From Bradymonadia bacterium (GTDB taxonomy: Bacteria; Myxococcota_A; Bradymonadia; UBA7976; UBA1532): a stretch of DNA of 64,000 nucleotides. Position 1 is the stretch's first letter. Every line of letters starts with the position of its first letter. Location of the stretch: the NCBI GenBank assembly GCA_046290225.1, contig JBKAGE010000035.1:256001-320000 (forward strand). The letters are read 5' to 3'. Under the pieces are notes generated by a model that searched no databases, was not told where the DNA came from, and saw nothing but the letters and a program-made list of their open reading frames with translations. Below, piece by piece: positions 694-37,611 of the stretch. Position numbers and translations under genes: made by a program.

Positions 694-2100
694 ATGCGCG
701 TCGGCATCATGACTGAGTATCCTTCCGTTGCCGTGCAGTCCGGGCCTGCCCTGCACACTCGCTTCTTGTACGAGCAGATGAAGGGTCGGGGGCACAGCGT
801 GGTGCTCATGGGGCCGGACACCGGCAGTGAAGATCCTATCGACGCTTCCGAGGTTCAGCTTTACAAAGGCCGCCCCTACCCCACGCACCCGAAGGTGAAG
901 ATCCCCATGCCGGCCAGCTTCGGCCACATGTGGAACGCCCCCGACGTGGACGTCATCCACTCCCAGACCAACACCCACATGGTGCATTACGCGGTCTGGA
1001 TGCGGCGCATGAACCGGGTGCCGGTGCTCAACACTCACACGGTGCACCTGCCCACCCACTCGCACTTCGTCATCTCGGACAAGATGTGGCAGAAGCCCGC
1101 GGTGCGGCGGTTCCTGATGAACAGCGCCTCGAAGCTCGAGCGCAACTTCGCCAAGCTCTACAACCAGGGCGACTACCTGATCGTGCAGAGCAAGCACTTC
1201 GTGCAGTACTGGAAGGACCGCGGCGTCACCATCCCCATCGAGGTGGTGGGCCGCCCCATCGACCCGGCGAAGTTCTCCAAGACCCCGGGCCGTGATCCGT
1301 TCCCCAAGGGCTTCACCAAGGGCAAGCGACTGCTGGTGGTCTGCCGCCACGACCGGGAGAAGAGCCTCGATCACCTGATCAAGATCTTCGCCGAGCATCT
1401 GGCGCCTTCTGATCCCGACATCACCCTCACCCTCGTCGGTGACGGCCACGATCACGTGAACCTCGTGAACCTCGCTTCACGGACGGGCTACGCCAACCGG
1501 ATTCACTTCCCCGGGGAGATGAAGCACGGCGAGCTCGTCGACTGGTACGCCCACAGCGACGTCTTCACCTACACCTCGATCTCCGAGACCTTCGGCAACG
1601 TGGTGAACGAGGCTCTGTGGTGCCGCCAGCCCGTGGTGGCCCTCAACGACAACATGGGCGTGGCCCATCAGGTCGAGGACGGCGTGAACGGGTTCCTCGT
1701 CGAGCCCAAGCAGGCCGACACCGACGTGCTCTTCGCGAAGCGCGTGATGCAGCTCGTCAACGACGACGCGCTCCGGGCCAGGATGGCGGAGACCGCCGCC
1801 GAGATGAGCCGGGCCCGCAGCCACCCCGACGTGGTGGTGAGCCGCTTCGAGAAGATCTACGGCGAGGCCAAGCGCCACTGCGACGCCACCATCACCCGGC
1901 CCCTGAGCGAGGCCAGCACCTTCCGCCAGAAGGCGGCCCTGGCCAACCACCTGCAGAAGTGGCGCTGGTACAACGGCTGGCTGCTCACCATCGCCAAGGT
2001 GGCCACGGGCCTCGGCGCCGGCCGCAAGGTGCCCACCCAGGCCCTGCCGGCCCCCACTGTGCACCAGACCGGCGAAGCCCGCCGGATCACCATCAGCTGA
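694..2100 (+). CDS. GT4 family glycosyltransferase (resembles diacylglycerol glycosyltransferases)
   Basis: AAGGAGG RBS before ATG 694; N-terminal MRVGIMTEYP, R-x-x-x-EK motif, SISETFGNVVNEA (E-x7-E) GT-B signature. Confidence 0.88.
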   Translation: MRVGIMTEYPSVAVQSGPALHTRFLYEQMKGRGHSVVLMGPDTGSEDPIDASEVQLYKGRPYPTHPKVKIPMPASFGHMWNAPDVDVIHSQTNTHMVHYAVWMRRMNRVPVLNTHTVHLPTHSHFVISDKMWQKPAVRRFLMNSASKLERNFAKLYNQGDYLIVQSKHFVQYWKDRGVTIPIEVVGRPIDPAKFSKTPGRDPFPKGFTKGKRLLVVCRHDREKSLDHLIKIFAEHLAPSDPDITLTLVGDGHDHVNLVNLASRTGYANRIHFPGEMKHGELVDWYAHSDVFTYTSISETFGNVVNEALWCRQPVVALNDNMGVAHQVEDGVNGFLVEPKQADTDVLFAKRVMQLVNDDALRARMAETAAEMSRARSHPDVVVSRFEKIYGEAKRHCDATITRPLSEASTFRQKAALANHLQKWRWYNGWLLTIAKVATGLGAGRKVPTQALPAPTVHQTGEARRITIS

Positions 2101-2109
2101 GTCGTCTAG

Positions 2110-3141
2110 ATGTCTGATCGCGGCCTCATCTTCGTCACCGGTGGCAACGGGTTCATCGGCAGCCGTGTCGTGCGCTTGCTCGTGGAGCAGGGCTACCGGG
2201 TGCGCTGCCTGTTGCGCCAGACCAGCAACACCGATCGCATCGATGATCTCGAGTTCGAGCGCTTCATCGGCGACGTGCGAGATCAAGCGTCCCTCACCGA
2301 GGGCATGCAGGGCGCTCAGGGGTGCATCCACCTCGCCTCGATCAGCGCCTGGGAGAAGATGGAGTCGGACGAGCTGGAAGACACGGTGATCTCCGGCACT
2401 GAATACGTGATGGAGGCCGCCCTCGCCGCGGGCAAGATCCGCACAGTCTTCGTCTCGTCGATCCTCGGCATCAACGGCACCACCGAGCCCCGGGAGATGA
2501 CCGAAGACGAGGTCTTCGGCCTCGAAGGCACCCCGCTGCGGTACGCCATCGCCAAGCACAAGGCCGAGGAGCGGGTCCGCCGCTACGTTGCGGAGCAGGG
2601 CCTGCCGGCGATCATCGTGAACCCCTGCGAGGTGTACGGCCCGGAAGACACCGGCCTGATCACCGCCTGCAACCTCATCGACTTCATCAATGGCTGGCCT
2701 GCCCTCACCCTGAAGGGGGGCACCGCCATCGTGCACGTGGACGACGTGGCTCAGGCCATGGTGGCCGCCCTCGAGAAGGGCGAGCCCGGCGAGCGCTACA
2801 TCCTCGGGGGGGACAACCTCACCCTCGACGCCCTCGCCCGCCTGACCCTCGACATCGCCGGCAAGCCCAACAAGACCGTGCTCCGCCTGCCGGTGGGGCC
2901 CGTCCGGGCTGTGGTCCGGGCCATGGCAGCCATCAAGCTGCCCACGCCCGTCGTGCCCCAGGTCCTCGATTACGCTCGTTATTACTACTTCGTCGATCAC
3001 ACCAAGGCCCGCGAGACGCTGGGGTTCGACCCCCGGCCCGCACGGGCGGTTCTGGAACCCACCATCGCCTGGCTCGCCGAGGCAGGGCACATCAAAGCCC
3101 TGCCCCAGAAGGCAGACGACTCCACCGCCCAGCGCGTGTGA
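2110..3141 (+). CDS. NAD(P)-dependent epimerase/dehydratase/reductase (extended SDR, DFR/HpnA-like)
   Basis: TGGNGFIG Rossmann motif, YAIAK (YxxxK), VHVDDVA, GERYILGG. Confidence 0.88.
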   Translation: MSDRGLIFVTGGNGFIGSRVVRLLVEQGYRVRCLLRQTSNTDRIDDLEFERFIGDVRDQASLTEGMQGAQGCIHLASISAWEKMESDELEDTVISGTEYVMEAALAAGKIRTVFVSSILGINGTTEPREMTEDEVFGLEGTPLRYAIAKHKAEERVRRYVAEQGLPAIIVNPCEVYGPEDTGLITACNLIDFINGWPALTLKGGTAIVHVDDVAQAMVAALEKGEPGERYILGGDNLTLDALARLTLDIAGKPNKTVLRLPVGPVRAVVRAMAAIKLPTPVVPQVLDYARYYYFVDHTKARETLGFDPRPARAVLEPTIAWLAEAGHIKALPQKADDSTAQRV

Positions 3142-3152
3142 AGGAGACCGAG

Positions 3153-4985
3153 ATGAACGCACCCAACATCCAGTCCCCGCAGCCCCTCGTCGCTCCGACC
3201 CTCACCGAGGCCCTCGACCGGCTCCCGAGCATGCGCCCCAACGGCGGCTACACCTTCATCGACATGAAGGGCGAGCAGCGTCTCGTGACCTATGCCGAGA
3301 TGAACACCCGCACCCGCAGCTTCGCCGGGCACCTGTACGATCAAGGCCTGCAGGTGGGCGATCGGGTGGGCCTCATCGTCATCGAGCCCGAAGACTTCGT
3401 GGTGGCCTTCTTGGGGACGATCCGCGCCGGCATGGTGCCGGTGCCCCTCTACCCCCCCATGGCCCTCGGCGAGCTCGACGCCTACCTCGGCCGCCTCGGC
3501 CGCATCTTGACCAAGGGTGAGGTGAAGGCCCTGGTGGCCTCGAAGGCCCTAGACAAGATCGTGTGGGGTGTCATGGGCAAGGTGCCCTGCCTCAAGGGCG
3601 TGCTCACCGTGGAGAAGCTCGTGGCCCCCCGCGAGCCCGTGGCTGATCTGCCGGTGCCCAAGGCCGATGATCTGTGCTTCTTGCAGTACACCTCGGGGTC
3701 GACCTCTGATCCCAAGGGTGTGGTGGTTCAGCACCAGCACTTGGCGGCGAACAGCCAGGCCATCGTGGATCACCTCGAGATCGACCGGCACACCGACAAG
3801 GCCTTCGCCTGGCTGCCGCTGTACCACGACATGGGCCTCATCGGCTTCGTGATCACCGGCACCCTGCACGGCTTCGACATCGTGCTCATGCCCACTCTGC
3901 GGTTCCTCAAGCGCCCCAACGCGTGGCTGCAGGGCATCCACGACACCCGGAGCACCATCACCTTCTGCCCGCCCTTCGCCCTGAGCCTCGCCGCTCGTCG
4001 GGCCAAGGAGGCTCAGCTCTCGAAGTGGGACTTGTCCTGCCTGCGGCTGGTGGGTGTGGGCGCCGAGCCGATCCAGCCCGAGGGGGCGCGGCAGTTCACC
4101 GAGCTGTTCAACGATCGCTGCGGCATGCCCACCACGGTGGTGACCCCGGCCTACGGCATGGCCGAGGCCACCCTGGCCATGTCGATGAAGCTGCCCGATC
4201 GTGAGTTCTCCACCCGCGTGGTCGACGCCGCCACCTTCGAGGCCACAGGCTGCGCGGTGACCGCCGAGGCCGGCGCCGCGGTGCTTGAGCACGTCTCCTG
4301 CGGCCGCCCGCTGCGCCGCCACCAGGTCCGGGCCATCAGCGCCGAGGGCAAGTGGCTGCCCGAGGGCGTGCAGGGCGAGCTGTGCTTCCGGGGGCCCTCG
4401 GTCACCGCGGGTTACTTGAACCAGCCCGAGGCCACCTCGGCGGCCTTCAAGAACGGCTGGCTGCACACCGGTGATCTGGGCTACGTGCTCGACGGCGAGA
4501 TCTTCGTCACGGGGCGACTGAAGGATCTGATCATCCTCAACGGCCGCAACCTGCACCCCCAGTCCCTGGAGTGGACGGTGGGCACCATCGACGGTGTGCG
4601 CAAAGGCAACGTGGTCTGCTTCTCGGTGCCCGGTGACGGCACCGAGGCCCTGGTGGTGGCCCTCGAGGCCCAGATCGACGCCCCTGAGGATCTCGCCGAG
4701 ACCGTGCGGGATCGCCTGCGCAAGGCCGAGGGCGTGCCGGTGGATCACGTGGTGATTTTGCAGAAGGGCCAGCTGCCCAAGACGTCTTCGGGTAAACTGC
4801 AGCGCCGCAAGGCCCGCCAGCTGTTCATCGAGGGCACCCTCGAGGCTCAGGGCTCTCGTGCTCAGGGCCAGGGCCCGAGCAACATCGCCGGCAAGGCCAC
4901 CCTTGCCCGCCACGTGGCCCGGAGCACCTGGGCCCGCATGAAGCACCAGGCCCGTGGGGCCCTGGGCCGGGGAGCGTTCTCTTGA
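3153..4985 (+). CDS. Fatty acyl-AMP ligase (FAAL)
   Basis: FLQYTSGSTSDPKGV, WLPLYHDMGLIG, YGMAEATL, TGDLG, GRLKDLII, LPKTSSGKLQR; AAGGAG RBS before ATG 3153 (alternative GTG 3138). Confidence 0.92.
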   Translation: MNAPNIQSPQPLVAPTLTEALDRLPSMRPNGGYTFIDMKGEQRLVTYAEMNTRTRSFAGHLYDQGLQVGDRVGLIVIEPEDFVVAFLGTIRAGMVPVPLYPPMALGELDAYLGRLGRILTKGEVKALVASKALDKIVWGVMGKVPCLKGVLTVEKLVAPREPVADLPVPKADDLCFLQYTSGSTSDPKGVVVQHQHLAANSQAIVDHLEIDRHTDKAFAWLPLYHDMGLIGFVITGTLHGFDIVLMPTLRFLKRPNAWLQGIHDTRSTITFCPPFALSLAARRAKEAQLSKWDLSCLRLVGVGAEPIQPEGARQFTELFNDRCGMPTTVVTPAYGMAEATLAMSMKLPDREFSTRVVDAATFEATGCAVTAEAGAAVLEHVSCGRPLRRHQVRAISAEGKWLPEGVQGELCFRGPSVTAGYLNQPEATSAAFKNGWLHTGDLGYVLDGEIFVTGRLKDLIILNGRNLHPQSLEWTVGTIDGVRKGNVVCFSVPGDGTEALVVALEAQIDAPEDLAETVRDRLRKAEGVPVDHVVILQKGQLPKTSSGKLQRRKARQLFIEGTLEAQGSRAQGQGPSNIAGKATLARHVARSTWARMKHQARGALGRGAFS

Positions 4986-5227
4986 CCGACGCCGAGATCC
5001 TCAACACCCTCAAAGAGGGCATCGCCGAGGTGGCGCCTCGCAAAGCCGCAGCCCTCACTGATCCTCAGCCCACCATGGCCCTCGCTGATCTGGGCCTCGA
5101 CTCGGTGTCGCTGATGGAGGTCTTCGGCTACCTCGAAGAGACCCTCGACCTGTACCTGCCCGAAGAGAAGCTCACCGAGCTGCGCACACTCGGTGACGTG
5201 ATCGCTCTGGTCCACGCGAGCCAGTAG
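4982..5227 (+). CDS. Stand-alone acyl carrier protein
   Basis: 81 aa, acidic, DLGLDSV phosphopantetheine serine motif; start overlaps the FAAL stop. Confidence 0.9.
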   Translation: MTDAEILNTLKEGIAEVAPRKAAALTDPQPTMALADLGLDSVSLMEVFGYLEETLDLYLPEEKLTELRTLGDVIALVHASQ

Positions 5228-5241
5228 CTGCCAGCGGGCTC

Positions 5242-5305
5242 ATCTCTGCTGAAGCCTGTCTCCACTGAAGCACATCTTCGCTGAAGCCTATCTCTGCTGA
5301 AGAAA
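5242..5305 (+). repeat. Four tandem imperfect 16-bp direct repeats (consensus ATCTCTGCTGAAGCCT)
   Basis: Units at 5242, 5258, 5274 and 5290 with invariant CTGAAG core. Confidence 0.85.
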
Positions 5306-5311
5306 GCCCCT

Positions 5312-8300
5312 ATGCACACGACCACCCCCATCGCCATCGTCGGCATTGGCTGCCGCTTTGCGGGCGCTCAAGATCTGCACGCCTACGCTGATCAGATGCT
5401 CGCCGGCGTCGACGGCTTTGGTCCGATCCCCGCGGATCGCTGGACCCACGACGGCTTCTTCGATCGCAACCCCCGCAAGGCCGACAAGGCCTACACCACA
5501 CGGGGCGGGTTCATCGACGACATCAAGAGCTTCCCCGCGGTGGCGCTGCAGATCCCGCCGCGGCGCCTCGAAGTGATGGATCCACAGCAACGCTTGATCT
5601 TGGAGGTGAGCCTTCAAGCGGTGGCGGACGCTGGGATGCACACCTCGGCCTTGCCAAAGCGTACTGGGGTGTACGTGGGGGTGACGGCGGTGGAGTTCCG
5701 CACGCTCATGGCCTCACGGATTCTGGCCCAGATGATGGCTCAGGGTGATCTCGGCGACGGCATGGTGGACCCCTCGGCCCTGGCGGCGGCCATCGATCGC
5801 GTGATCCCGCCCCGGCCCTTCACGGCACCAGGCGTGCTCTCGAACATGATCGCCGCCACGGTGGCTCAGGAGCTGGGTCTGAAGGGCCCGGCCTTCACCA
5901 TGGACGCGGCGTGCGCCTCGTCTCTGCTGGCGGTGGCCCAGGCGGTGACGGGTCTTCGGGCGGGGCTCACCGACGTGGCCCTGGCAGGCGGGGTGTACCT
6001 CTGCCTGACCCCGGAGCATCACGTGGCGTTCTCCCGCATCGGGGCCATCAGCCCCTCGGGGCGCTGCCTGCCCTTCGACGCCCGGGCCGACGGCTTCGTG
6101 CAGGGTGACGGCGCTGGCATGGTGATGCTCAAGCGCCTCGATGACGCCGAGGCCGCCGGGGATCGCATCTACGGCATCATCGAAGGCATCGCCGTGAACA
6201 ACGACGGTGGCGGCGAGGGCCCCATGGCCCCGGTGCAGTCCGGCCAGATGGACGTGATCGAGATGGCCTGGGCCGACGCGGGGCTGAGCGCTTCGAATCT
6301 GGGCTACGTGGAGACCCACGGCACCGGCACCGCGGTGGGCGACAAGACCGAGTTCGCCGCCCTGATGCAGACCCTCGGCGGTGATGTTCAGCAGGCGGCC
6401 TTGGGCTCGGCAAAGGCCAATGTGGGCCACACGATGTCCGCCGCTGGAGTGGCGGGCCTGATCCGGGCCACGCTGGCGCTCTCTCGCGAGGTGGTGCCCC
6501 CCATGGCCCACTTCGAAGGGGCCAAGGCCGAGCTGGGCCTCGACGACTCGCCTTTCTTCGTACCCACAGCCCAGCAGGCGTGGTCTGGTGCCGATCGCCT
6601 CGCGGCGGTGAGCAGCTTCGGCTTCGGCGGTACCAACGTGCATGCCGTCGTCCGCTCAGCCAATGGCGGCTCGATGGCTGCGCATGGCGCGCCCGCGCCC
6701 ACACCCCAGCTCGAGCTGGTGTGCATCTCGGCCCCTGACGAGGTCAGCCTGCAGACCCTCGCCGGCCGCACCGCCGACGCTCTTGAGGCCGATCCGAGCC
6801 TCACCGTGGCTGGAGTGGCCCGAGCATGGCAGGTCCGCCGAGCCCAGCCCGCTCGCCTGGCCCTCGTGGCCGACAACCGGGAAACCCTCGTAGCCCAGCT
6901 GCGGGCGGCCCAGGCCGGCGAGCACGCAGACGGCACCACGGCAGCCCTCGCACCGGAGACGCCCCCAAAGATCGCAGGGCTCTACCCTGGCCAGGGCGCC
7001 CAGCAGATCGGCATGTTGCGGGCCCTCAAAGATCGCTTTCCGATCATCGCCGACGCCCTCGCCGAGGCCGACTCTGTGGCCAGCGAGGTGTGCACGCGCC
7101 CGATCTCGGAGCTGCTCTACCCCGAGCTCCGCGCCGAGACCATCGACGATGAAGCCGCTCAGGCCGAGCTGACCAACACCCGCAACGCTCAGCCTGCTCT
7201 CATCGCCGTGGGCCACGCCCTCACCGCTTTGTTGGATCAGGTGGGTGTGCAGCTCGACGTTGTGGCTGGTCACTCCGTCGGTGAGTTCACCGCCGCGGTC
7301 ACCGCCGAGGTCCTGCCCTTCGAATCAGGCCTGCGCTGGGTGGCGGCTCGGGGCGCCGCCATGGCCGATCACGAGGGTGATCCTGGGGCTATGGTGGCCC
7401 TGCACGTGCCCGCAGAGCGGGCCGAGGCCCTCCTCGTCGAAGTTCTGCCTGTGGGGCACGACCACCACGGTGAAGCCATCGTGGCCAACCACAACCACCC
7501 CCGACAGGTGGTGGTCTCCGGCACGACGCCTGCGGTGGCCGTCATCACCGAGGCCGCCAAAGCTGCGGGCATGCGGGCCACGCCGCTCCAGGTCTCTCAC
7601 GGATTCCACTCCCCAGTCTTCGCCGATCTTGATCTGAGCGCTGTCGTCGATGGTCTCCCCCTCGCTGATCCGCAGATCCCCCTGGCGTCGTGTATCCAGG
7701 ATCATCCCTACGCCGACGCCGACGAAGCCCGCGCGGTCTTCAAAGCCCACGCCACCTCGCCGGTGCGCTTCGTGGATACGCTGAAGCAGTGCCAGCAGGC
7801 CGGCGCCGAGTTGTTCCTGCAGGTGGGTGTCGGCGGCCCGCTGGCCTCGTTCACCCGAGGCACCCTCGAGGCGGGCAGCCACAAGGGCGTGCTCACCCTG
7901 AGCAGCCACAAAGAGCACCTCTCGGTGGGCGCCCTGCTGCTCACCTTGGGCAAGCTCTGGGTGGCGGGCGTGCCCGTGAACACGGCGCCCATCACCGGCT
8001 CGGCCCCCGTGGCCAGTGTGCCCCCGGAGGTGCTCCCCCGCACATGGCACTGGGGCGTGAAGCGCGAGGGCAATGGCCGCACCACCCTCGTGGGTCTGCA
8101 GAGTGAGGCTAAAGCCCAAACCACAGCTCAACCCAAGACGACGACCAGCAGCCTCGCCGCTGAGAAGCCAGCGGCGAGCCCGGCCACCGCGCCCGCACCG
8201 CAGGTCGACGTGCCCGCTGAGTCGTCTGCTCAGGCCGCCTCTGCCGAGTCCGTCATTCTTTCCACTGTGGCTCAGGTGAGCGCCTACCCGCTCGCCGCCC

Positions 8301-11300
8301 TCAAGGTGGAGATGCGGCTCATGGAGGATCTGGGCTTCGACTCGCTCATGCTCGTCGATCTCGGGGAGCAGCTGGTCAAGGCGATCGACGGCCTCGACGG
8401 GCTGCCTCAGGAGCTCTTCGTCAACCAGCCCAGGATCCAGGATCTCATTGATTACGTGACCGCTCAGGGCGACAGCAACGCCGAGGCGAACACCTCGACA
8501 GCAGACGAGGCGCCAGCGCACATCGATGATCACGATCCGCTGTCGCGGTTCCGACCCCACTGGGTCGAGGCGCCGCTCCCCACGTCGACCACCCCGTGGC
8601 CCGAAGGGCTGAAGGTGGCCATCGCCGGGCCCGGCGTCAGCGCCGCGGGGGTGCGGAGCGCTCTGCAGCAACGCGGCAACGCGCTGGTGAGCCCCTCCGA
8701 ATGCGATGTGCTCGTCTGGTGCGCAGACGGTGTCGATCAGCCGCACCTGGCCCTCGTCGTCGATGGTGACGATCCGGCCCCTGATCCTGCCGCAGCGCTG
8801 CTGTCGACCCTCAAGACCCTCGACAGCAACAGCCACCGACCCGACGTGATGGTCCTCCGCGACGCCGAGGACTTCTGGGCCGAGGGCCTCACCGGGGTGA
8901 TCCGCGCCCTGGCGCGAGAGTGGCCCGAGAGCCGCTGCCAGAGCCTGCGCTTCGACGCAGGCCTCAGCGCCGAAGCCCGCGTGGAGATCTTCACCCAGGC
9001 TGCAGTGAGCGCCGACGCCACCGTCGACGCCCTGTTCACGCCCACAGGGCGCTTCATCGCCGATCTGGCCCCAGCGCCGGAGACCGCAGAGCCGTTTGCA
9101 CCCACCAAATGGGGCTGGACGGTGATCACCGGGGGCATGCGGAGCGTGGGCCTCGCCATTGCCCAGCGGCTGCTCGATGCCGGCGGCATGGTGGCCCTCG
9201 TGGGCCGCAAGGGCCCCTCCAGCGAGGCAGAAGATCTGTGGCACACCCACGGCGAGCGGGTGGCCTTCGTCAAAGCCGACGTGCTCGACAAAAAAGGCAT
9301 CGCGCTGGCGCTGGAGAGGTGGCATGGCCGAGTGCACACCATGGTGCACTGTGCTGGTGTCCTCGCCGACGGCGCAGTAGGTCAGGTGAGCCTTGAGGCG
9401 GGTCGCAGTGTACGCGCGGTCAAGACTCAGGGCTGGCTCAACAGCCTCGCCGCCTGTGGCCGGGGGCTCAAGCGCACTGTGGCCATCGGCTCGTGGGCAG
9501 GTCGTTTCGGCAACCGGCACCAGTTGCACTACGCTGCAGCCAACGCCCAGATGGCCGCCATCGCCGAGCATCTGCCGATCCCTGCAGTGGTCTCCGAGTT
9601 CGGCCCCTGGACCGACAGCACCATGGGGCAGACCCTCTCTGAGGGGGTCAAGGCCACCATGCGAGCCAGCGGCGTCGACTTCGTGGGCACCGAGGCGGGC
9701 GTGAACGCCGTGCTCGCCGATCTCGCCGATCCCATCGGGGTGAGCCTGAGGGCCCGCCGCGTACCTCAGCGCGATCGCCGCGTGCAGCAACGCGTGCCGT
9801 TGTCGGTGGCCGCGCACCCGTACCTGCACGATCACGCCATCGGCGGTGTGCCGGTGCTGCCCATGGCCTCAGTGGTCGATCTCATCGCGTGGTCCAGCGC
9901 CGTGCAGGGGCCCTTCGAGGTCAGCAACGTGCGCTTGTTCCGAGGGGTGACGGTCACCGAAGACACCCACCTCACGGTGCAGGTCAACGGCGACGCCGCT
10001 CGAGTGACTGGTCCTGAAGACACCCTGCACTACACCGCCACGGTGCGGCCTGTGCTCGACCTGCCCACCTGGGCCGCCGTCGACGCCACTGGCCCCGTGG
10101 GGGTCGATCTCGACACCTTCTACCGCGACGTCACGTTCCACGGCCCCATGCTGCGCGGCCTCGTCGCTGCCGAAGGCGCTGGGCCCGACGTGATCCGTGG
10201 TCGAGTGAAGACCGGCCGCCCCAGCGACTGGATGCCCGACACCGCGCGAGATCGCTGGTCTGTCGATCCGCTGGCCCTCGACTCGGCCTTCCAGCTCGCA
10301 GCCGTGGCCGCCTGGGTGCAGTTCCAGCGTGGGGGCACCCCCATCGCTCTGGAGCGTCTGGTCCAGATCGCGCCGCTGCCCGCAGGTGAGATCTGGGCCG
10401 AGGTGCGGCTGAAGAGCCACACCGGCGACCAGTTCACTGCCGATGTGGCCCTGCTCGACGCCAGCGGCGCGCTGTTGCTGCTCGCCGAGGGCCTCAAAGC
10501 AGAGCTGCGGGCCATCGAGGCCCCTGATCAGGGCCACGATCCAGCGCCCCAGGCACCTGAGACCCCTGCAACTGAAGCCCCTGCCGCCGAGGCGATGGAG
10601 CTGAAGCCCGAGTGGACCGACTTCGCCGAGGCCCCAGAGTACAAAGACCTGCGCATGCGCCTCGATATGGTGGGCGCGCTGGGCTTGAAGAACCCCTACT
10701 TCGACGTGCACCAGGGCACCGCCCGCAGCCACAGCCTCATCGACGGCCGCGACTGCCTGAACTACAGCAGCTACAACTACCTCGGTTACTCTGGTGATCC
10801 CCGAGTGCTCGACGCCGTCGAGGCCGCCATGCGCACGTACGGCACCTCGGTGAGCGCCAGCCGGGTGGCCAGTGGGGAGCGGCCGTTCCACGGTGAGCTC
10901 GAGCGGGGCCTCGCCGCCGCTCAGAACGCCGACGCTGCCGTGGTCATGGGCTCGGGTCACGCCACCAACGTCACCACCATCGGTCACCTGTTCGGCTCGA
11001 AGGATCTCATCCTGCACGACGAGCTGATCCACGACTCGTGTCTGCAGGGCATCAAGCTCTCCGGAGCTGCCCGCCGGAGCTATCGTCACGAGGATCCTGA
11101 GCACCTCGAGTCTCAGCTCAAGATGCTGCGCCCGCACTACGAGCGCGTGCTCATCTTGACCGAGGGCGTGTACTCGATGGACGGCGACATCTCGAACACA
11201 CCGGCCTTTGTGGCGCTCAAGCGCAAATACGGCTGCTTGCTGATGGTCGACGAGGCCCACTCCTTCGGCACCGTAGGGGCCACGGGCCGGGGCGTCGGCG

Positions 11301-11824
11301 AGCATTGGGGCCTCGAGCGCGGTGATGTCGACATCTGGATGGGCACTCTGAGCAAGAGTCTGAGCGCCATGGGCGGCTGGATCGCCGGCAGCAACGCCCT
11401 GGTAGAGTACCTGCGTTACACCACCCCGGGCTTCGTCTTCGCCGCTGGCCTGCCCCCGACGCTGGGCGTGGCGGCGCTCACCTCGCTGCAGCTCATGGCC
11501 CAGGAGCCCGAGCGCGTGCAGCAGCTGCAGCGCAATGGCAAAACCTTCGTTCAGGCCCTCACCGAGCGGGGCATCGACGTGGGCCCCGCCCGAGGCGAGT
11601 CACCGGTGGTGCCGGTCATCACTGGCAACTCGCTGCATGCGATGCACCTCGCCGCCCGTCTGCTCGAAGACGGCATCAACGCCCGGCCCATCGTGTACCC
11701 CGCCGTGGCGGACGACGCAGCCCGGCTGCGGTTCTTCCTGTGCAACCTGCACACGCCCGAAGAGCTGGTCCACACCGCAGAGCGCGTAGCCCATCACCTG
11801 CAGCAAATCCGCAGCGAGATCTGA
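5312..11824 (+). CDS. Type I PKS KS-AT-ACP-KR-DH fused to C-terminal PLP-dependent alpha-oxoamine synthase (BioF/serine palmitoyltransferase family)
   Basis: KS DAACASS/HGTGT/NVGH; AT GQGAQ, GHSVG, SHGFHS; ACP LGFDSL; KR TGGMRSVG, LADG, YAAAN; DH HAIGGVPVLP and DSAFQ; AOS SYNYLG, EGVYSMDGD, DEAHS, TLSKS. Confidence 0.95.
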   Translation: MHTTTPIAIVGIGCRFAGAQDLHAYADQMLAGVDGFGPIPADRWTHDGFFDRNPRKADKAYTTRGGFIDDIKSFPAVALQIPPRRLEVMDPQQRLILEVSLQAVADAGMHTSALPKRTGVYVGVTAVEFRTLMASRILAQMMAQGDLGDGMVDPSALAAAIDRVIPPRPFTAPGVLSNMIAATVAQELGLKGPAFTMDAACASSLLAVAQAVTGLRAGLTDVALAGGVYLCLTPEHHVAFSRIGAISPSGRCLPFDARADGFVQGDGAGMVMLKRLDDAEAAGDRIYGIIEGIAVNNDGGGEGPMAPVQSGQMDVIEMAWADAGLSASNLGYVETHGTGTAVGDKTEFAALMQTLGGDVQQAALGSAKANVGHTMSAAGVAGLIRATLALSREVVPPMAHFEGAKAELGLDDSPFFVPTAQQAWSGADRLAAVSSFGFGGTNVHAVVRSANGGSMAAHGAPAPTPQLELVCISAPDEVSLQTLAGRTADALEADPSLTVAGVARAWQVRRAQPARLALVADNRETLVAQLRAAQAGEHADGTTAALAPETPPKIAGLYPGQGAQQIGMLRALKDRFPIIADALAEADSVASEVCTRPISELLYPELRAETIDDEAAQAELTNTRNAQPALIAVGHALTALLDQVGVQLDVVAGHSVGEFTAAVTAEVLPFESGLRWVAARGAAMADHEGDPGAMVALHVPAERAEALLVEVLPVGHDHHGEAIVANHNHPRQVVVSGTTPAVAVITEAAKAAGMRATPLQVSHGFHSPVFADLDLSAVVDGLPLADPQIPLASCIQDHPYADADEARAVFKAHATSPVRFVDTLKQCQQAGAELFLQVGVGGPLASFTRGTLEAGSHKGVLTLSSHKEHLSVGALLLTLGKLWVAGVPVNTAPITGSAPVASVPPEVLPRTWHWGVKREGNGRTTLVGLQSEAKAQTTAQPKTTTSSLAAEKPAASPATAPAPQVDVPAESSAQAASAESVILSTVAQVSAYPLAALKVEMRLMEDLGFDSLMLVDLGEQLVKAIDGLDGLPQELFVNQPRIQDLIDYVTAQGDSNAEANTSTADEAPAHIDDHDPLSRFRPHWVEAPLPTSTTPWPEGLKVAIAGPGVSAAGVRSALQQRGNALVSPSECDVLVWCADGVDQPHLALVVDGDDPAPDPAAALLSTLKTLDSNSHRPDVMVLRDAEDFWAEGLTGVIRALAREWPESRCQSLRFDAGLSAEARVEIFTQAAVSADATVDALFTPTGRFIADLAPAPETAEPFAPTKWGWTVITGGMRSVGLAIAQRLLDAGGMVALVGRKGPSSEAEDLWHTHGERVAFVKADVLDKKGIALALERWHGRVHTMVHCAGVLADGAVGQVSLEAGRSVRAVKTQGWLNSLAACGRGLKRTVAIGSWAGRFGNRHQLHYAAANAQMAAIAEHLPIPAVVSEFGPWTDSTMGQTLSEGVKATMRASGVDFVGTEAGVNAVLADLADPIGVSLRARRVPQRDRRVQQRVPLSVAAHPYLHDHAIGGVPVLPMASVVDLIAWSSAVQGPFEVSNVRLFRGVTVTEDTHLTVQVNGDAARVTGPEDTLHYTATVRPVLDLPTWAAVDATGPVGVDLDTFYRDVTFHGPMLRGLVAAEGAGPDVIRGRVKTGRPSDWMPDTARDRWSVDPLALDSAFQLAAVAAWVQFQRGGTPIALERLVQIAPLPAGEIWAEVRLKSHTGDQFTADVALLDASGALLLLAEGLKAELRAIEAPDQGHDPAPQAPETPATEAPAAEAMELKPEWTDFAEAPEYKDLRMRLDMVGALGLKNPYFDVHQGTARSHSLIDGRDCLNYSSYNYLGYSGDPRVLDAVEAAMRTYGTSVSASRVASGERPFHGELERGLAAAQNADAAVVMGSGHATNVTTIGHLFGSKDLILHDELIHDSCLQGIKLSGAARRSYRHEDPEHLESQLKMLRPHYERVLILTEGVYSMDGDISNTPAFVALKRKYGCLLMVDEAHSFGTVGATGRGVGEHWGLERGDVDIWMGTLSKSLSAMGGWIAGSNALVEYLRYTTPGFVFAAGLPPTLGVAALTSLQLMAQEPERVQQLQRNGKTFVQALTERGIDVGPARGESPVVPVITGNSLHAMHLAARLLEDGINARPIVYPAVADDAARLRFFLCNLHTPEELVHTAERVAHHLQQIRSEI

Positions 11825-11828: not shown

Positions 11829-13121
11829 TCAGCGCGCCGTCAAACCTTCGAGGGTTCGGGCCAGGAGCCCGGCGGTGTGGGGCGCGGAGAACTGATCCAC
11901 GGCGTCCCCCTTAGGGGTCACCGCCGGCCTGCCCTCCACAGCAGCAGCGAGCACCTTCCGCAGCGCGTCGCACACCGCGGCCACGTCATCAGGGGCTGCC
12001 ACAAACCCCGTGCCTGTATCTTCCACCATGCCCCGCAGCTCGGAGCTGCCGGAGAGACACAGGATCGGCGCTCCAGACAAGAAGTAGTCGAAGGTCTTCG
12101 CCGGCACGTACAAGGTCTCGCCACCATAGGCCAGCAGCAGCTGAAGCGGAGCCTTCGCCAGGCGGGTGATGCCCTCGGCATAAGGCACGTACGGCTCCCA
12201 GTGCAGCATGGACTGCAGACCCAGATCAGCGAGCAGGTCCAAGTCGGTCTGCGCCGGACGCCCCAGGTTCACCAGCCGCAAGCGCTCCGCGCCTGGGCAC
12301 TGCTCATCTCGGAGACGGGCGACGGCTCGAATGACCGTCGCCAGCTTCCGGGGCCCATAACAATTGCCGAAGTGGATCAGATCGATGGGCCCGTCAGGGT
12401 CGATGTGCACCCCTCGCGGCGGCGCCAGCGCCGGATCGAAGCTGTTGTAGATGGTGCGGATGTGGCCCTCGGGCAAGCCTGGGTACAGCTGGCGGTAAGC
12501 CTCAGCGGCGTGCTCACACGTGAGCAGCACCTGATCAGCTGCGGCGAAGTAGCGTGACTCGAGGCGCGCCTCCACCGCCCGCGTCCAGTTGGGTTTACGC
12601 AGTTGGTTGAAGTTGAGCGACCACGGATCGCGCAGGTCGAGGCACACCGGCAGGCCGGTCATCTTCTTGGCGGCGATGCCCAGCCGCAGCATGTAGTAGG
12701 GGCTCGACGTAGAGAAGATGACCTCGGGCTGCCAGCGATCCACCGCCTCGCGGATCTGGCGCAACATCCAGCGCTGAATCCAGGCCTGAGAGTTCAGCGG
12801 CAGCTGAAACTGCCCCGTCACGGTCTTCACCAGTGACTTCTTCTGCTCCGGGCGATCGGTGGTGGGCTGAGCGGTCGTGCCATCGCTGGGCCGGCCCTTG
12901 GGCTCAGGCCACCACCCAGGCAGCAGGTTGCGCTGGAGCACCACCGAGTCGGGCAAGGGATGGGGCGTAGAGTCCGCCCGCTCCGGAGAGGGCTCCGGGC
13001 CGGTGATCACCACGGGGCGCCACCCATGCTCGGGCAGATACCGGGCAAACCGATAAGGCCGCTTCCCGCCCACCGCGAAGGAGGGGGGAAAGTGCTCTGC
13101 CAGCATCAATACGGTCCTCAT
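11829..13121 (-). CDS. GT4-like (GT-B fold) glycosyltransferase
   Basis: FPPSFAVGGKR, GWRPVVIT, DLRDPW, PAKTFDY motifs typical of polysaccharide-locus GT4 enzymes. Confidence 0.82.
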   Translation of the reverse strand: MRTVLMLAEHFPPSFAVGGKRPYRFARYLPEHGWRPVVITGPEPSPERADSTPHPLPDSVVLQRNLLPGWWPEPKGRPSDGTTAQPTTDRPEQKKSLVKTVTGQFQLPLNSQAWIQRWMLRQIREAVDRWQPEVIFSTSSPYYMLRLGIAAKKMTGLPVCLDLRDPWSLNFNQLRKPNWTRAVEARLESRYFAAADQVLLTCEHAAEAYRQLYPGLPEGHIRTIYNSFDPALAPPRGVHIDPDGPIDLIHFGNCYGPRKLATVIRAVARLRDEQCPGAERLRLVNLGRPAQTDLDLLADLGLQSMLHWEPYVPYAEGITRLAKAPLQLLLAYGGETLYVPAKTFDYFLSGAPILCLSGSSELRGMVEDTGTGFVAAPDDVAAVCDALRKVLAAAVEGRPAVTPKGDAVDQFSAPHTAGLLARTLEGLTAR

Positions 13122-13294
13122 GCGTATGCCTCTGCGCGCCTCTGTGATGTCGTCCGGCGCAGCTTGACGACTTTGAAGATTACGTACAACACGCTTGTCG
13201 ATCTCCCAGACCGCGCGGGCGGTTGCTCACACCAGACACGGTGCTTAGAGTGCCTCTCAACGCCAGCCCGCGCTCAAAGCTCCGAGGTCGTCCA

Positions 13295-14047
13295 GTGCCG
13301 CTCCCGCTCATCTCCGCCATCATCCCCATCCGCAACCGCAGCAGCGATCGACTGGAGAACTGCCTGAGGGCGCTCCGATGGCAGGATCTGCCAGACGATC
13401 AATACGAAGTGATATTGAGTGATTTTGGCTCCAGCCCCGAGGAGGCCCGCCTGCTCCTCGAGATGGCCGAGCGCCACGGCGCCAGAGTGGTGCGCACCGA
13501 CACCGACGAGGTCTGGAACCGCTCCCGGGCCCTGAACTACGGCATCCGCGCCGCCCGGGGCGACTTCGTGTTCTGCACGGACGCCGACATGATCTTCGCG
13601 CCGAACTTCCTGAGCACGCTCCTGAGCACGCAACAGGCGAACGCGGATCAGGCCTTCGTGGTGTGCCGCTGCCGGGATCTCCCCGAGTCAGTGCCGGAGC
13701 AGCCCTGGCGGTTCGAGGATTTTCCGGATCTGCTGAGCAAGGCGGACTTCAGAGAGAAGCTGGGCACTGGGGCCTGCCAGATGGCAAAACGCAGCTTCTT
13801 CAACGACATCCGCGGTTACGACGAAGGCTTCAAGTTCTGGGGCATGGAAGACAACGACATGAAGTTCCGCGCCACCCGCTCGGGGCTCTCACTGATCTGG
13901 GTGCACGAGCAGACGTCAATGCTGCACCAGTGGCACCCCTCGGATCGCGGCAAGCGCCCGTTCCGGAAGTTCCTCAACGACGTACGGTTCCACGTGAGCA
14001 AATACCGCCGTCGCAAGAACCTGGTGCGCTGGGGCGGCCAGCCATAG
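13295..14047 (+). CDS. GT2 family glycosyltransferase
   Basis: ISAIIP, SDFGS, NRSRALNYG, TDAD (DxD), GYDEGFKFWGMEDND; GTG 13295 with GAGG RBS (ORF open from 13223). Confidence 0.88.
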   Translation: MPLPLISAIIPIRNRSSDRLENCLRALRWQDLPDDQYEVILSDFGSSPEEARLLLEMAERHGARVVRTDTDEVWNRSRALNYGIRAARGDFVFCTDADMIFAPNFLSTLLSTQQANADQAFVVCRCRDLPESVPEQPWRFEDFPDLLSKADFREKLGTGACQMAKRSFFNDIRGYDEGFKFWGMEDNDMKFRATRSGLSLIWVHEQTSMLHQWHPSDRGKRPFRKFLNDVRFHVSKYRRRKNLVRWGGQP

Positions 14048-14065
14048 AGGCCCAGCCATTCCCCT

Positions 14066-15703
14066 TCAGCCCTGAGACTTCAAAAACTTCAACCGCACCC
14101 ACCCCAAACCAAAGGCCAGGTCAGCTGACGAAATCAGCCCCGTCACCCGGCCGATGAGGGTGAACATCGGGATGATGATGATCGCATAGGCCACCAGGCC
14201 CACCAGCGGGTGCAACAGATCAGCATTCTTGAGCAGCACCGCGGGGATCGCCGCCGCTGAAGCCGCCAGCACCACCTTGAGCCAGATGAAGACCGGGAAG
14301 GTGTGCGTAAAAGGCACCTTGAGGGCATCAGCGATGTAGTAGCAGTACACCGCCACCATGGGGATGAAGGCCAGCAGGGTGCCCAGAGCGGGGCCGATGA
14401 AGCCCAGCCAGAGGGCCAGGGGGATCGTGAGCACCAGGTTCGAAACCAGGGCGAAGGAAGACGCCTTGAACAGGAGCGGTGAGCGACCTGCGGCGAGGAT
14501 CAGCACCCCGAAGCTGGCCACCCGGCCCATCGTGTAGATCACGTAGATGCGGAACACCTGGGCCGCGCCCAGGTAGTCATCCGTGAAGGCCACCCGAATG
14601 AACTCCTCCGCGCCGACGACGAAGATCATGCAGATGGGGATGATGATGAGCGAGACCTTGTGGATCGACTCTCGCCAGAGGTCGATGACCGTCATCGGCT
14701 GCTCCGCTTTGATCAGCTCGACGAAGCGGGGCATGTAGACGTGGCCGACGCTGTAGGCGATGGCCGTGATGGGCAGCTGCCAGGCCCCGGCGCGGTACTC
14801 TGCGAACAGCTGCGCCGACATCAGCAGCAAGATGGCGTAGCGGTCGATGGCGGCGTTGAGGTTGTTGATGATGTCCGTCAGGCCCAGCGGGTAGGCGAAG
14901 CGGGCCATCTCGCCGAGGCTGACCTCCGAGGGCACGTGAGCCACCCCACGGTATTGCTGCATGAACACGCGGCCGATCCAGGCACCCTGGATCAGCGAGA
15001 ACAAGGTGAGCCCACCCACGATGCCCGGCACGCCCAGGCCCAGGGCCGCGGGGATCACCATGCCGGCGCTCATCCCGATGGCCCGCAGGACCCCGAAGGT
15101 GGCCGCCTTGCTGGCGCGGTTCTCGGCGATCAGGAAGTTCGGGAACACCCGGGCCAGCACGTCGAGCACGGGGAAGGCCACGAAATACTTCAAATAACTG
15201 AGATCAGCCCGCTCTCCCTGCGGATCATCCGAGACCCATTGCCCGAAGGCGTCGAGCACATCGTTCCCGACGAGGCCCACGACATAGAGCACCACCCCGA
15301 TGATCACCCCCAGGCCCATCACCGCGCCGAACAGTCGCCGGGAGATGGCGAAGCGCGCCTCTGCGTCGCGGCCCGCCAGGAAGAACAGGATGGCCGCGGG
15401 GAAGCCCGCGGTGAGCACCACCGAGAGGGTGGTGTAGATGAGCATCAGGCCCGTGAAGGCGCCGAAGTCGGCTTTGCCCAGCAAGCGCACAATGACGAAG
15501 GGCATGATGGCCTCTGCCACCATGGCCATGAACCGACCAAAGACCAGGATGCTCGCGTCGCGGACCTCATTGCGCTCCGAGGTGGGCTCTTGTTGCGCGT
15601 CTGGCTGATCTTCGGGCTGCTCTGCAGGCCGCTCTTCAGATGTGTCTTCTGGGGGGTTGGACATGAGGCGGGCCGAGCTCTGCGTGGGTCTTGGGGTGGC
15701 CAT
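14066..15703 (-). CDS. Wzx/MOP-superfamily oligosaccharide flippase
   Basis: Many hydrophobic segments; VRLLGKADFGAF, IDRYAI, LWLGFIGPALGT patterns; start uncertain (15703 or 15664). Confidence 0.82.
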   Translation of the reverse strand: MATPRPTQSSARLMSNPPEDTSEERPAEQPEDQPDAQQEPTSERNEVRDASILVFGRFMAMVAEAIMPFVIVRLLGKADFGAFTGLMLIYTTLSVVLTAGFPAAILFFLAGRDAEARFAISRRLFGAVMGLGVIIGVVLYVVGLVGNDVLDAFGQWVSDDPQGERADLSYLKYFVAFPVLDVLARVFPNFLIAENRASKAATFGVLRAIGMSAGMVIPAALGLGVPGIVGGLTLFSLIQGAWIGRVFMQQYRGVAHVPSEVSLGEMARFAYPLGLTDIINNLNAAIDRYAILLLMSAQLFAEYRAGAWQLPITAIAYSVGHVYMPRFVELIKAEQPMTVIDLWRESIHKVSLIIIPICMIFVVGAEEFIRVAFTDDYLGAAQVFRIYVIYTMGRVASFGVLILAAGRSPLLFKASSFALVSNLVLTIPLALWLGFIGPALGTLLAFIPMVAVYCYYIADALKVPFTHTFPVFIWLKVVLAASAAAIPAVLLKNADLLHPLVGLVAYAIIIIPMFTLIGRVTGLISSADLAFGLGWVRLKFLKSQG

Positions 15704-15803
15704 CAATGGCCCGAGTCGACCGCGGCGTCAAGGGGGCCAACCCGGGGCAATCGCCCTTTGATGGCTGTGATATGGTGAGTCTTCACCTTAATTTCAGAGC
15801 GCC

Positions 15804-16967
15804 ATGATCGACCCACGACCCATCATCGACGAGATCCACGAGCATCTGCGGGCGCTGGGCGCCAAAAAAGTGGTGCTCTATGGCTACACCCGACGCGATC
15901 ACACCCATCACTGGGTCATGGCCGCCATCCATCGCGCCTTCGAGCTGATCCTCGCCGACACACCGGAGATCTCTCTGCACTGGGTGGACAACCGCAGCCG
16001 CGGGCTGATGCGCACCCTCGAAGATGCCGTGGTCTTCGGCAACATCAACGCCGACAAGGTGCACTGGGCCATGCCCCTGGTGCCCAGCGCCCACTACATC
16101 CTGCACAACCACGCCCCCAAGGATCTCACCGTCGACCCCTTCGCCGAGTACATCGAGGCCGGTCGGTGCGTGTTCTACGACGTCTTCCGCGGGCGGCCCG
16201 AAGGTGACTATGTGCCGGTGGAGGGCGAGCCGTGTCACTACACCTCGCTCTCAGAGGCCAACCTCACGATCACCTGGGCCACCGATCTGCTCCCCGGCGA
16301 GATCGCCGAGAACGCTGAGCGGGTCAAAGGCCTGAGCAGCGACGCTGATCGCCGTGAGGTGGTGTTCGTGGGCTCACTCTGGCGAGCCAACGCCGACGAG
16401 ATGGTGGAGCTGGCCCAGCACACAGTCGATCGGGGCCTCGTGTTCACCCACTACGGCCGCCAGCTGCTCCAGGCCCCGTGGCCCGAGCACGCGGACGTCA
16501 AGGTGCACACCGGCTCGGTCTCCTTCGAGGAGAACATGCGGCTGGTCCGCGAGGGCAAGATCGCCCCTGCGCTCCAAGGGCTACATCAGCTGAAGAACCC
16601 CACCGAGGTGGGCAACTACGTGCCTTGCCGCATCTTCAAGAACATCAGCTACGGCGCCTGGGGGGTGAGCAACAACCCCACCGTCGCCACGCTCTTCGAT
16701 GACGAGCTGATCTGCGAGGCCGACATCGGCGCCATGCTCGACGCCGCCCTCACCGCCATCACCGACCGACCTCAGCGCACGGCGCTGCTGCCCATGATGG
16801 CCCACGTCGCCGCACACCACACCTACCTCAACCGCCTGCGCCTCATGCTCAGCTTCGCCCACGCACGGCGAGACTCGGTGGGCATGCGCACGCCCCCTGC
16901 ACCCAAAAAGGCCGACCAGCTGCGCTGGATGGGCAAGCACACTGTCTCTCGCATCTTGCGGCGCTGA
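15804..16967 (+). CDS. Putative glycosyltransferase-like protein (CgeB/Glyco_trans_1_2-like C-terminus)
   Basis: VVFVGS, CRIFKNISYG and HHTYLNRL motifs; polysaccharide-locus context. Confidence 0.55.
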   Translation: MIDPRPIIDEIHEHLRALGAKKVVLYGYTRRDHTHHWVMAAIHRAFELILADTPEISLHWVDNRSRGLMRTLEDAVVFGNINADKVHWAMPLVPSAHYILHNHAPKDLTVDPFAEYIEAGRCVFYDVFRGRPEGDYVPVEGEPCHYTSLSEANLTITWATDLLPGEIAENAERVKGLSSDADRREVVFVGSLWRANADEMVELAQHTVDRGLVFTHYGRQLLQAPWPEHADVKVHTGSVSFEENMRLVREGKIAPALQGLHQLKNPTEVGNYVPCRIFKNISYGAWGVSNNPTVATLFDDELICEADIGAMLDAALTAITDRPQRTALLPMMAHVAAHHTYLNRLRLMLSFAHARRDSVGMRTPPAPKKADQLRWMGKHTVSRILRR

Positions 16968-17058
16968 TCTTCGCCACGTGACAGCGATTGATTGAGCCTC
17001 AAGAAGTTCGGCGCGCCACCCGATGGCAAAGCATTGCCCCGCCGGATAACGAAGGCAG

Positions 17059-20238: not shown

Positions 20239-20317
20239 GAGGGTGCTCGAAGATGGCCTGTTCAGGGGGGCATTCTCTCACACCACGCGTGTGCAGGCAC
20301 TTCGAGATATGGCTTGG

Positions 20318-22156: not shown

Positions 22157-22206
22157 CAGTGGTCCTGTTATCTTCCCTCTCCGGATACGTTCACCGGAGC
22201 CCCAAC

Positions 22207-35527: not shown

Positions 35528-35531
35528 GGAC

Positions 35532-37477: not shown

Positions 37478-37611
37478 GGCACGGGACTCTGGGGGCAGCA
37501 GACATTGGGGGCAAGGGGTTTCGTGGAACAGGTCTGATGCACGGCACATAGAGAAAGGTGCGTTGCTCATCACCGAGGTGCCGTTATGCTCAAGTGCTCA
37601 GGAGGTTCACC

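Follow-up and report, generated by a model that had tools for sequence, protein, structure and literature searches.

A cluster of five genes was identified in the window, as the whole 64,000-nt stretch of Bradymonadia bacterium analysed here is called (GCA_046290225.1, contig JBKAGE010000035.1; its source genome is designated G000), and it probably makes a sphingoid-type long-chain base, likely 4E-unsaturated. According to the ORF list, five ORFs, all on the plus strand and tightly packed, span window positions 694-11824. They code for a GT4 glycosyltransferase, a short-chain dehydrogenase/reductase (SDR), a fatty acyl-AMP ligase (FAAL), an acyl carrier protein (ACP), plus a monomodular type I polyketide synthase (PKS) fused to an alpha-oxoamine synthase (AOS). 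FAAL would adenylate a fatty acid and load it onto the free ACP, the ketosynthase (KS) would extend the chain with malonate, probably once, and the ketoreductase (KR) and dehydratase (DH) would convert it to a 2E-enoyl thioester. The fused AOS would condense this thioester with an amino acid, probably serine, with loss of CO2, placing the acyl C1 at C3 and the alkene at C4-C5 of the base, and the SDR would reduce the 3-ketone. One cycle and serine would give a 4E-unsaturated base, sphingosine in the case of a C14 starter, and no oxygen-dependent desaturase would be needed. The gene anatomy, the catalytic residues, the AOS clade, the linkage of FAAL, ACP, and PKS, and the alternation of two reductases were observed in the genomes compared, and the chemical steps are deduced from them. 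A preliminary description of this DNA had claimed five co-directional packed genes and the same core chemistry. ORFs, Pfam, and gaps confirm the former, and the latter is strengthened by the AOS tree, the separate BioF and Kbl genes, FAAL at 50 of 54 loci, and the reductase swap, with serine, one cycle, and the 4E bond still deduced.

The PKS gene (5312-11824) is one 2170-aa frame free of stops. Pfam gave the domain order KS, acyltransferase (AT), ACP, KR, DH, and pyridoxal phosphate (PLP) class I/II domain, and found neither enoylreductase (ER) nor thioesterase (TE), as the preliminary description had held. By Pfam and alignment, the KS (5324-6676; Cys201, His336, and His373; also by tree), AT (6980-7867; Ser655), internal ACP (8252-8458; Ser1011), KR (9113-9613; Asp1353, Ser1394, and Tyr1407), and DH (9779-10501; His1508 and Asp1657) were delimited on the plus strand. 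The PLP-dependent AOS domain (10619-11824, plus strand; His1907, Asp1980, His1983, and Lys2015) was assigned to a WcbT/RkpG/SgaB-like clade by PDB matches and trees. The only stretches with no Pfam assignment are linkers and about 190 aa ahead of the KR, which we infer to be a structural pseudo-KR (pseudoKR). The catalytic motifs read earlier in every domain proved general, as all catalytic residues of KS, AT, ACP, KR, DH, and AOS are invariant in 123 of 123 aligned full-length homologues (homologous-protein matches of at least 2000 aa plus 15 from fetched loci, the window included). The reducing domains are thus under selection and are no relics. The AT motif HG/AFHS is presumably malonyl-type. 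The invariant Asp1353 at the LDD-type position is taken to mark a B-type KR, which would give a D-hydroxyl and, after dehydration, a trans alkene. In the tree, the KS groups first with actinobacterial KS-AT-ACP-AOS proteins and then with WcbR/RkpA-type KSs, and not with SgcE, the sole reference of enediyne PKSs (PKSE), whose long branch makes its placement unsure.

RkpG-, WcbT-, and Pseudomonas SgaB-like enzymes share a long-branched clade (100/99) with the AOS domain, which is separate from BioF, Kbl, and canonical serine palmitoyltransferase (SPT). A tree of 29 rows computed with careful search and a tree of 66 rows computed with quick search had the same outcome; RedL, SxtA, Fum8, and PfSgaB were not among the rows, so the phylogeny proposed earlier is answered for SPT, BioF, Kbl, and WcbT-like enzymes. 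The names RkpA/G/H and WcbR/T are labels from gene context, and SgaB-like means a Pseudomonas AOS following a type I PKS. The clade also takes in planctomycete FAAL-(ACP)-AOS loci, actinobacterial KS-AT-ACP-AOS proteins adjoining MMPL genes, and a Planktothrix plasmid PKS adjoining glycosyltransferases. Other architectures with an AOS of this clade are at loci L005, L007, L012, L017, L018, L047, L055, and L069; L015 and L364; and L368. The window AOS shares 52% identity with a Pseudomonas AOS linked to a PKS, 30-35% with SPT, Kbl, and BioF, and 32% with E. coli Spt. Its best PDB match is Sphingobacterium SPT with 228 bits, compared with 127 bits for E. coli BioF. That the domain is a BioF feeding biotin synthesis has a practically negligible probability. 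The top NCBIfam model is indeed bioF, and homologues in JGI carry the automatic names aminotransferase or 8-amino-7-oxononanoate synthase (BioF), but the score is 325 bits against a cut-off of 426 (TIGR00858). Moreover, G000 has its own BioF adjoining a bioD-like gene and its own Kbl adjoining a tdh-like gene, and both enzymes stand in separate clades of the tree. Both roles were therefore rejected, and the pimeloyl-specific BioF considered in the preliminary description is dismissed with them.

The conserved core of the cluster is smaller than the five genes. Matches to the C-terminal half of the PKS at E<=1e-90 exist in 66 of 401 sampled phylum genomes (about one in six, ~16%) and, within the class, in 23 of 113, G000 included. 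At E<=1e-100, 1055 of 8000 scored proteins matched, and the named homologues carry the labels Deltaproteobacteria, Myxococcota, or Myxococcales, which makes Myxococcota the probable phylum. Fifty-seven other loci were fetched, two of them being the same DNA. FAAL is directly upstream of the PKS on the same strand in 50 of the 54 loci with at least 2.6 kb of upstream flank (two of these are the same DNA), usually with an ACP between. The window-type SDR is immediately ahead of FAAL in two of the 57 loci, and GT4 is at the PKS in none of them within the fetched flanks; in genome G113 it lies just outside, divergent from a desaturase. FAAL-ACP-PKS is therefore the unit and the five-gene order is particular to G000, so the conservation of that order, which the preliminary description had named as a check, fails outside the core. 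The FAAL gene (3138-4985, plus strand) has PRK09192 as best NCBIfam model, with 471 bits at a cut-off of 600, and its product is the predicted fatty-acid loader of the ACP. A start at ATG 3153, with a better ribosome site, is likelier than at 3138. This ligase has the FAAL-type insertion: the stretch concerned measures 64 residues here, 65 in E. coli AasR (34% identical), and 38-39 in two ordinary ligases of G000. The stand-alone ACP (4982-5227, plus strand, PF00550) has 81 aa with Ser in the LDS motif at residues 39-41 and is the predicted starter carrier. This PKS was found in none of the 27 genomes of the window's own family, and in the AOS and KS trees its nearest relatives belong to other families. 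Both observations suggest that G000 may have gained the cluster laterally.

The SDR (2110-3141, plus strand, 343 aa) is an extended, HpnA-like member of PF01370 and the predicted 3-keto reductase of the long-chain base. Its best PDB match is 3WJ7 (171 bits), which we take to be a long-chain aldehyde reductase. Close orthologues (47-52% identity) were found in nine of the 112 other genomes of the class, and all nine are PKS carriers. Outside the class, 5 of 48 carriers have such an orthologue, as do 2 of 32 non-carriers; one of these two non-carriers has a stand-alone SPT-like gene, and the other, with 83% completeness, belongs to the same genus as a carrier. A classical RkpH/KDSR-like SDR is beside FAAL in 10 of 57 loci. 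It shares 40% identity with the SDR that follows rkpG in S. meliloti, and its third PDB match is TSC10, the 3-ketodihydrosphingosine reductase. When 56 carriers were tested for both SDRs, 43 had the classical one only, 11 the window type only, none both, and two neither. The classical SDR was not found in G000. It is present in 3 of 24 non-carriers, all three with a stand-alone SPT-like gene. Two unrelated reductases in one slot fit a required 3-keto reduction, and the spread of the window type over seven families means that the switch took place several times. On these grounds the window SDR is judged a pathway enzyme. Its identification as an orthologue of Epi/CerR was not supported, as identity is 30% over 219 aa, no better than for other SDRs of G000. 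In several carriers of the family designated f6, the window-type SDR is beside a YghO homologue (E 3e-34) and, in three genomes, 12-15 kb from the PKS.

In family f6 (n = 43), the fused PKS was identified in 12 genomes and a stand-alone AOS (above 580 bits) in 26, both were found together in none, and no genus mixes them. The stand-alone AOS is in several loci beside an ACP, a YghO-like acyltransferase (bacterial ceramide synthase, bCerS), and an Epi-like (CerR) reductase. The fused PKS may stand in for the ordinary first step. Outside the class, a stand-alone SPT-like match above 340 bits, a threshold chosen afterwards, was found in 21 of 27 bCerS-bearing non-carriers versus 5 of 48 carriers. 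In some f6 genomes with no fused PKS, a FAAL-ACP-KS fusion of 1160-1640 aa is upstream of the stand-alone AOS (L310, L311, L313, and L314). This exclusion in f6, the reductase swap, and the acyltransferase candidate described below were worked out in the present analysis.

Several observations weigh against the reading as a sphingoid base cluster. The five carriers outside the class that do have an SPT-like match are one of them. In f6, two members of the family, with three others, make up the profile that finds the stand-alone AOS, and this AOS is no canonical SPT by tree or model, its assignment being by neighbours only. Two of the 12 f6 carriers (G053 and G079) hold a divergent sister AOS (~400 bits), and the exclusion pattern may reflect few lineage splits. 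The co-occurrence counts treat kin as independent, and their thresholds were set after the scores were known. At position 1278, which belongs to the NADPH loop, the window KR has Ser, whereas Gly stands there in 118 of 123 homologues. The window AOS scores under every NCBIfam cut-off, with 288 of 640 (CFB-type SPT), 265 of 500, and 212 of 670 bits for the curated SPT models, and at such distance these models fail to separate the AOS subfamilies. No bCerS homologue was found in G000, which is 99% complete, by single query, by a 4-row profile, or by a 36-row profile over six frames (best E 0.16 with the last). Within the phylum the link of bCerS to the PKS is weak: 169 of 401 genomes have a homologue, made up of 34 of the 66 carriers and 135 of the 335 non-carriers. 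Finally, the KR-DH order and its best plasmid matches are those of iterative enediyne PKSs.

The last point leads to an unlikely alternative, namely an iterative PKSE-like module in which several KS/KR/DH cycles would build a conjugated polyene, released by the AOS as an amino-ketone or amino-alcohol (a pigment or secondary metabolite). PKSE has the same KS-AT-ACP-KR-DH order with no ER, and the C-1027 PKS is among the best plasmid matches of the pseudoKR-KR-DH region. The related SgaA is iterative, too (PMC12134224). On the other hand, the KS did not group with SgcE, subject to the uncertain place of that branch, and at E<=1e-3 the DH did not match SgcE. In addition, 50 of 54 loci retain a dedicated module for a long-chain starter, and the exclusion with the AOS of ceramide clusters in f6 fits a membrane lipid. 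For the sphingoid base, a single extension cycle and the E geometry are slightly favoured.

Serine is the likelier amino acid joined by the AOS, judging from its clade and its active site. PfSgaB, the tested member of the clade's Pseudomonas branch, is serine-specific and hardly condenses alanine or glycine (PMC12134224). The active-site motifs of PfSgaB (sequence from Suppl. Fig. S6 of the same paper) are common to the window AOS, as judged by eye. Compared at the ligand contacts described for Sphingobacterium SPT (PMC10196870), the window enzyme keeps the equivalents of Ser81, His138, His213, Thr241, Ser243, and Lys244. Two positions speak against it: Ala replaces the phosphate-binding Ser273 (Ser in 73 and Ala in 50 of 123 homologues), and Asp1908 stands where Pseudomonas and rhizobial enzymes have Asn. 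Serine as the substrate is therefore not secured. Use of glycine or alanine, giving a 1-deoxy base or a RedL/RedK-like cyclic alkyl-pyrroline or pyrrole, is rather improbable. The RedL layout FAAL-ACP-KS-AT-ACP-AOS resembles the window cluster. RedL converts dodecanoic acid to 4-keto-2-undecylpyrroline, which RedK reduces (PMC12654105). The first-shell differences of the AOS from SPT point in the same direction, and since most carriers lack GT4, the pathway need not supply a C1 hydroxyl. However, the KR and DH, intact in 123 of 123 homologues, would eliminate the beta-keto group on which pyrroline closure depends, PfSgaB uses serine almost exclusively, and no prodiginine-type genes were among the scanned neighbours; RedL itself is absent from the tree.

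N-acylation of the base in G000 is tentatively ascribed to a stand-alone acyltransferase of about 320 aa, PF00198-like (E2-fold), encoded elsewhere in the genome. The gene comes after the SDR in G031 and after the PKS in G319 and G379, and the G000 orthologue (49% identity) is on contig C77 (G000:C77:120074-121045). Homologous loci with a copy are L158:8625-9578, L233:1442-2332, and L235. In genomes hand-picked to fill four classes, 35 of 44 carriers (G000 included) had a close copy, as did 2 of 18 non-carriers, each of which also has a stand-alone SPT-like gene. Three non-carriers have distant copies. Among 29 carriers with no bCerS, the E2-fold protein is close in 25 and distant in three, and five of the six carriers with a weak or no copy have bCerS. 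In this family, Glu replaces the catalytic His of E2 enzymes and an HHxxE motif is invariant. The G000 copy deviates from the family's DERIDDG motif. The fold assignment is based on Pfam, PDB sequence matches, and Atlas. If this protein is no N-acyltransferase, the product of G000 would stay a free base. Other acyltransferase types were searched as well. An OlsB-type PF13444 search gave no match, with controls matched in 2 of 14, and a search for the eukaryote-type TLC ceramide synthase gave no match but was silent with the controls too and is uninformative. L156:8974-10035 was left out of the GNAT alignment as unrelated. A PlsC-like acyltransferase is beside the SDR in five f6 genomes and has a 41% orthologue at G000:C71:31949-32920.

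The first gene of the cluster codes for a retaining GT4 of 468 aa (694-2100, plus strand; PF00534/PF13439, EX7E motif at residue 298), with no NCBIfam model near its cut-off. It possibly glycosylates the PKS product, as GT4 enzymes are able to glycosylate ceramide or diacylglycerol, and those of B. fragilis (BF9343_3149) and Z. mobilis (Cer-GlcAT) act on ceramide (PMC9692976). The GT4 family is present in 86 of 401 genomes of the phylum, including three families with no PKS; 11 of 65 other carriers and seven non-carriers have close orthologues. In most cases GT4 forms a divergent pair with another GT4, accompanied by an MMPL gene. The module continues upstream of the window (L112:11180-18348 = G000:C35:249179-256347, entering the window at 1-347) with a second GT4, an MMPL transporter, a DXD glycosyltransferase, and two 379-aa proteins of no assigned function. 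The MMPL-GT4 / GT4 arrangement recurs in G346, G222, and G266, and GT4-DXD glycosyltransferase-GT4 recurs in the PKS-free family f17. In three carriers (G113, G378, and G430) a desaturase / GT4-fatty-acid hydroxylase arrangement recurs; GT4 between these two genes makes action on the PKS product plausible. As the module also occurs with no PKS, glycosylation is the weakest step, and of the sugar transfer proposed in the preliminary description only this plausibility is left. Convergent with the PKS, with a gap of 4 nt, is another GT4 gene of the window (11829-13121, minus strand, by Pfam). Its 26-29% full-length homologues are next to homologues of the first GT4 in the PKS-free loci L292-L295 and L306, and it is probably part of the same putative glycosylation module.

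Downstream of the PKS, at 11829-23109, this GT4 is followed by a GT2, a Wzx-type flippase, a GT-like gene, rmlB, rmlA, and rmlC, and by an rmlD-like ORF at 22207-23109. In another, very unlikely reading, a surface polysaccharide would be anchored to or primed by the lipid, a role proposed for the RkpAGH/WcbRTP loci, and its glycan would be assembled through the flanking GT4, GT2, flippase, and rml genes. The AOS and KS are relatives of RkpG and RkpA, which are located among capsule genes, and the GT4, GT2, Wzx-type flippase, and rmlBAC lie at 11829-19600. Against this, the GT2, flippase, and GT-like gene of the window were unmatched in the class-level PKS loci labelled with them, and no capsule-export families were among the Pfam-scanned neighbours, most phylum-level neighbours being outside that scan. 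This alternative is about what the lipid is used for and does not conflict with the chemistry proposed here for the sphingoid base.

In other lineages, the starter module carries additional genes. A short (282-aa) methyltransferase of cyclopropane fatty acid synthase (CFA)/CMAS type is inserted between FAAL and ACP in 13 of 57 loci, and a DesA-like membrane desaturase is upstream in 11, with a second desaturase in three. These additions are in loci L101-L105, L110, L111, L201, L202, L204-L206, L233, and L240, and G000 has no orthologue of that methyltransferase or that desaturase. A delta-5 bond in the starter would land at C9-C10 of the base, and the fungal ceramide C9-methyltransferase is annotated as CFA-synthase-like (PMC9325734). 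FAAL-ACP is detached from the PKS in four f6 genomes: L240 (G081:C29), L152 (G079:C2), L153, and L157. In G081, desaturase-FAAL-CMAS-ACP is ~9 kb from the PKS on the opposite strand, and the PKS of G079 has an internal TGA.

The closest known system is PfSgaA/SgaB/SgaC of Pseudomonas fluorescens MYb115, where a PKS and an AOS make sphinganines (Peters et al. 2025, PMC12134224), together with the related RkpAGH/WcbRTP loci. The statement in the preliminary description that characterised bacterial sphingolipid synthesis uses a free-standing SPT is thus outdated. The window likewise has a type I PKS, an AOS of the same clade, and an SDR, and the KS clades are neighbours. In SgaAB, a monomodular PKS is followed by a separate AOS, whereas in the window both are fused; fused forms are also among WcbRT-like loci, so fusion alone is a minor difference. 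The window PKS further differs by its KS-AT-ACP-KR-DH composition with no ER and with the ACP between AT and KR, while the SgaA-like reference has the KR near the C-terminus, and by the FAAL/ACP pair that supplies the starter. In place of SgaC, the window has an extended SDR, and 43 of 56 carriers have the classical KDSR-like one. SgaAB gives saturated C24-C28 sphinganines (PMC12134224), whereas an unsaturated base is predicted for the window. In the genus table of that paper there is no Myxococc-, Polyangi-, or Bradymon- row and there are three 'unclassified Deltaproteobacteria', and single members of the window PKS type may be among its 6,101 SgaAB clusters.

Priming resembles that of the AasR/AcpR/Spt system, which in Caulobacter crescentus and E. 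coli BL21 goes with Epi (CerR) and Aca (bCerS, YghO). There, a FAAL-type ligase and a dedicated ACP feed the AOS and an extended SDR is in the operon (PMC9386255; bioRxiv 10.1101/2023.11.08.566215). The window has this FAAL and dedicated ACP of the canonical SPT pathway, the FAAL being below the PRK09192 cut-off. Unlike that system, it has a PKS module between ACP and AOS, an AOS of another clade, and no bCerS in G000. RedL/RedK of undecylprodiginine synthesis, likened here by description, also combines fatty-acid loading, PKS extension, PLP-dependent amino-acid condensation, and a reductase (PMC12654105), but the window PKS has intact KR and DH and no pyrrole genes nearby. From PKSE it differs by a KS outside SgcE and by an AOS instead of a PPTase domain at the C-terminus. 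In fungal sphinganine-analog clusters (fumonisin Fum1/Fum8/Fum13 and myriocin, as cited in PMC12134224), a PKS chain is also released by an AOS and then reduced by a KDSR-like SDR; by description, they use a highly reducing iterative PKS, a separate AOS, and no FAAL starter. The window route is thus predicted to work in the SgaABC manner and to be primed in the AasR/AcpR manner, and it is outside both systems by fusion, lack of ER, domain order, and lack of bCerS. What appears new is the fused FAAL-primed variant of the PKS sphingolipid route first shown in 2025, PKS-made bacterial sphingolipids being already known from SgaAB. No paper on a FAAL-primed KS-AT-ACP-KR-DH-AOS fusion was found by full-text literature search, which left most subscription journals outside its reach.

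In eukaryotes, the 4E bond of sphingosine is placed by an O2-dependent desaturase. If the proposed pathway is true, a PKS dehydratase would be a second way to this bond. As far as the compared papers report, tested bacterial routes give saturated bases. In euxinic Black Sea water, roughly half the ceramide structures carry one double-bond equivalent in their base, and these were ascribed to bacteria (PMC11334938). An O2-free PKS route would be one candidate source of them, with no tie of the carriers to that habitat made here. Since automatic annotation names these proteins aminotransferase or BioF, surveys based on SPT would miss such producers. The E2-fold acyltransferase, if its role is true, would add a new family of ceramide synthases, methyl-branched sphingadienines from bacteria would make a fungal marker less reliable, and a self-priming sphingosine synthase would be useful for long-chain base production in a laboratory host. 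A wider reading, doubtful as a whole, is that much of the phylum makes 4E-unsaturated ceramides by an O2-independent PKS route replacing SPT, acylated by a third kind of ceramide synthase with E2/CAT fold and Glu for His. Some lineages would tailor the starter with desaturase and CFA-type methyltransferase into methyl-branched or cyclopropyl bases like 9-methyl-sphingadienine, which is held fungus-specific, and G000 would add a glycosyltransferase module to obtain a glycosylceramide.

The intergenic gaps between GT4, SDR, FAAL, ACP, and PKS are 9, -4 (11 if FAAL starts at 3153), -4, and 84 nt. In the scan of the locus, no promoter-like site was found, and eight terminator-like sites were counted versus 3.8 +/- 2.3 expected by chance, none of them informatively placed. 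A phosphopantetheinyl transferase (PPTase) gene is at 10 of 57 homologous loci and is absent from the window cluster. Only two PPTase matches exist in G000, one to a domain within a 3856-aa PKS and one to a small protein of AcpS size (G000:C70:89778-90005, C78:248526-248759). At G000:C78:96893-102408, another AOS fusion, distantly related and of 818 aa, precedes a 1016-aa protein that contains a FAAL. The window also encodes, at 34742-37573, a LolA-like protein and larC/larB-type genes of the nickel-pincer cofactor. In loci of family f32 (L209, L210-L213, L215, L217, L218, L220, L221, L223, L224, L236, and L002), a ~380-aa protein of no assigned family comes after the PKS.

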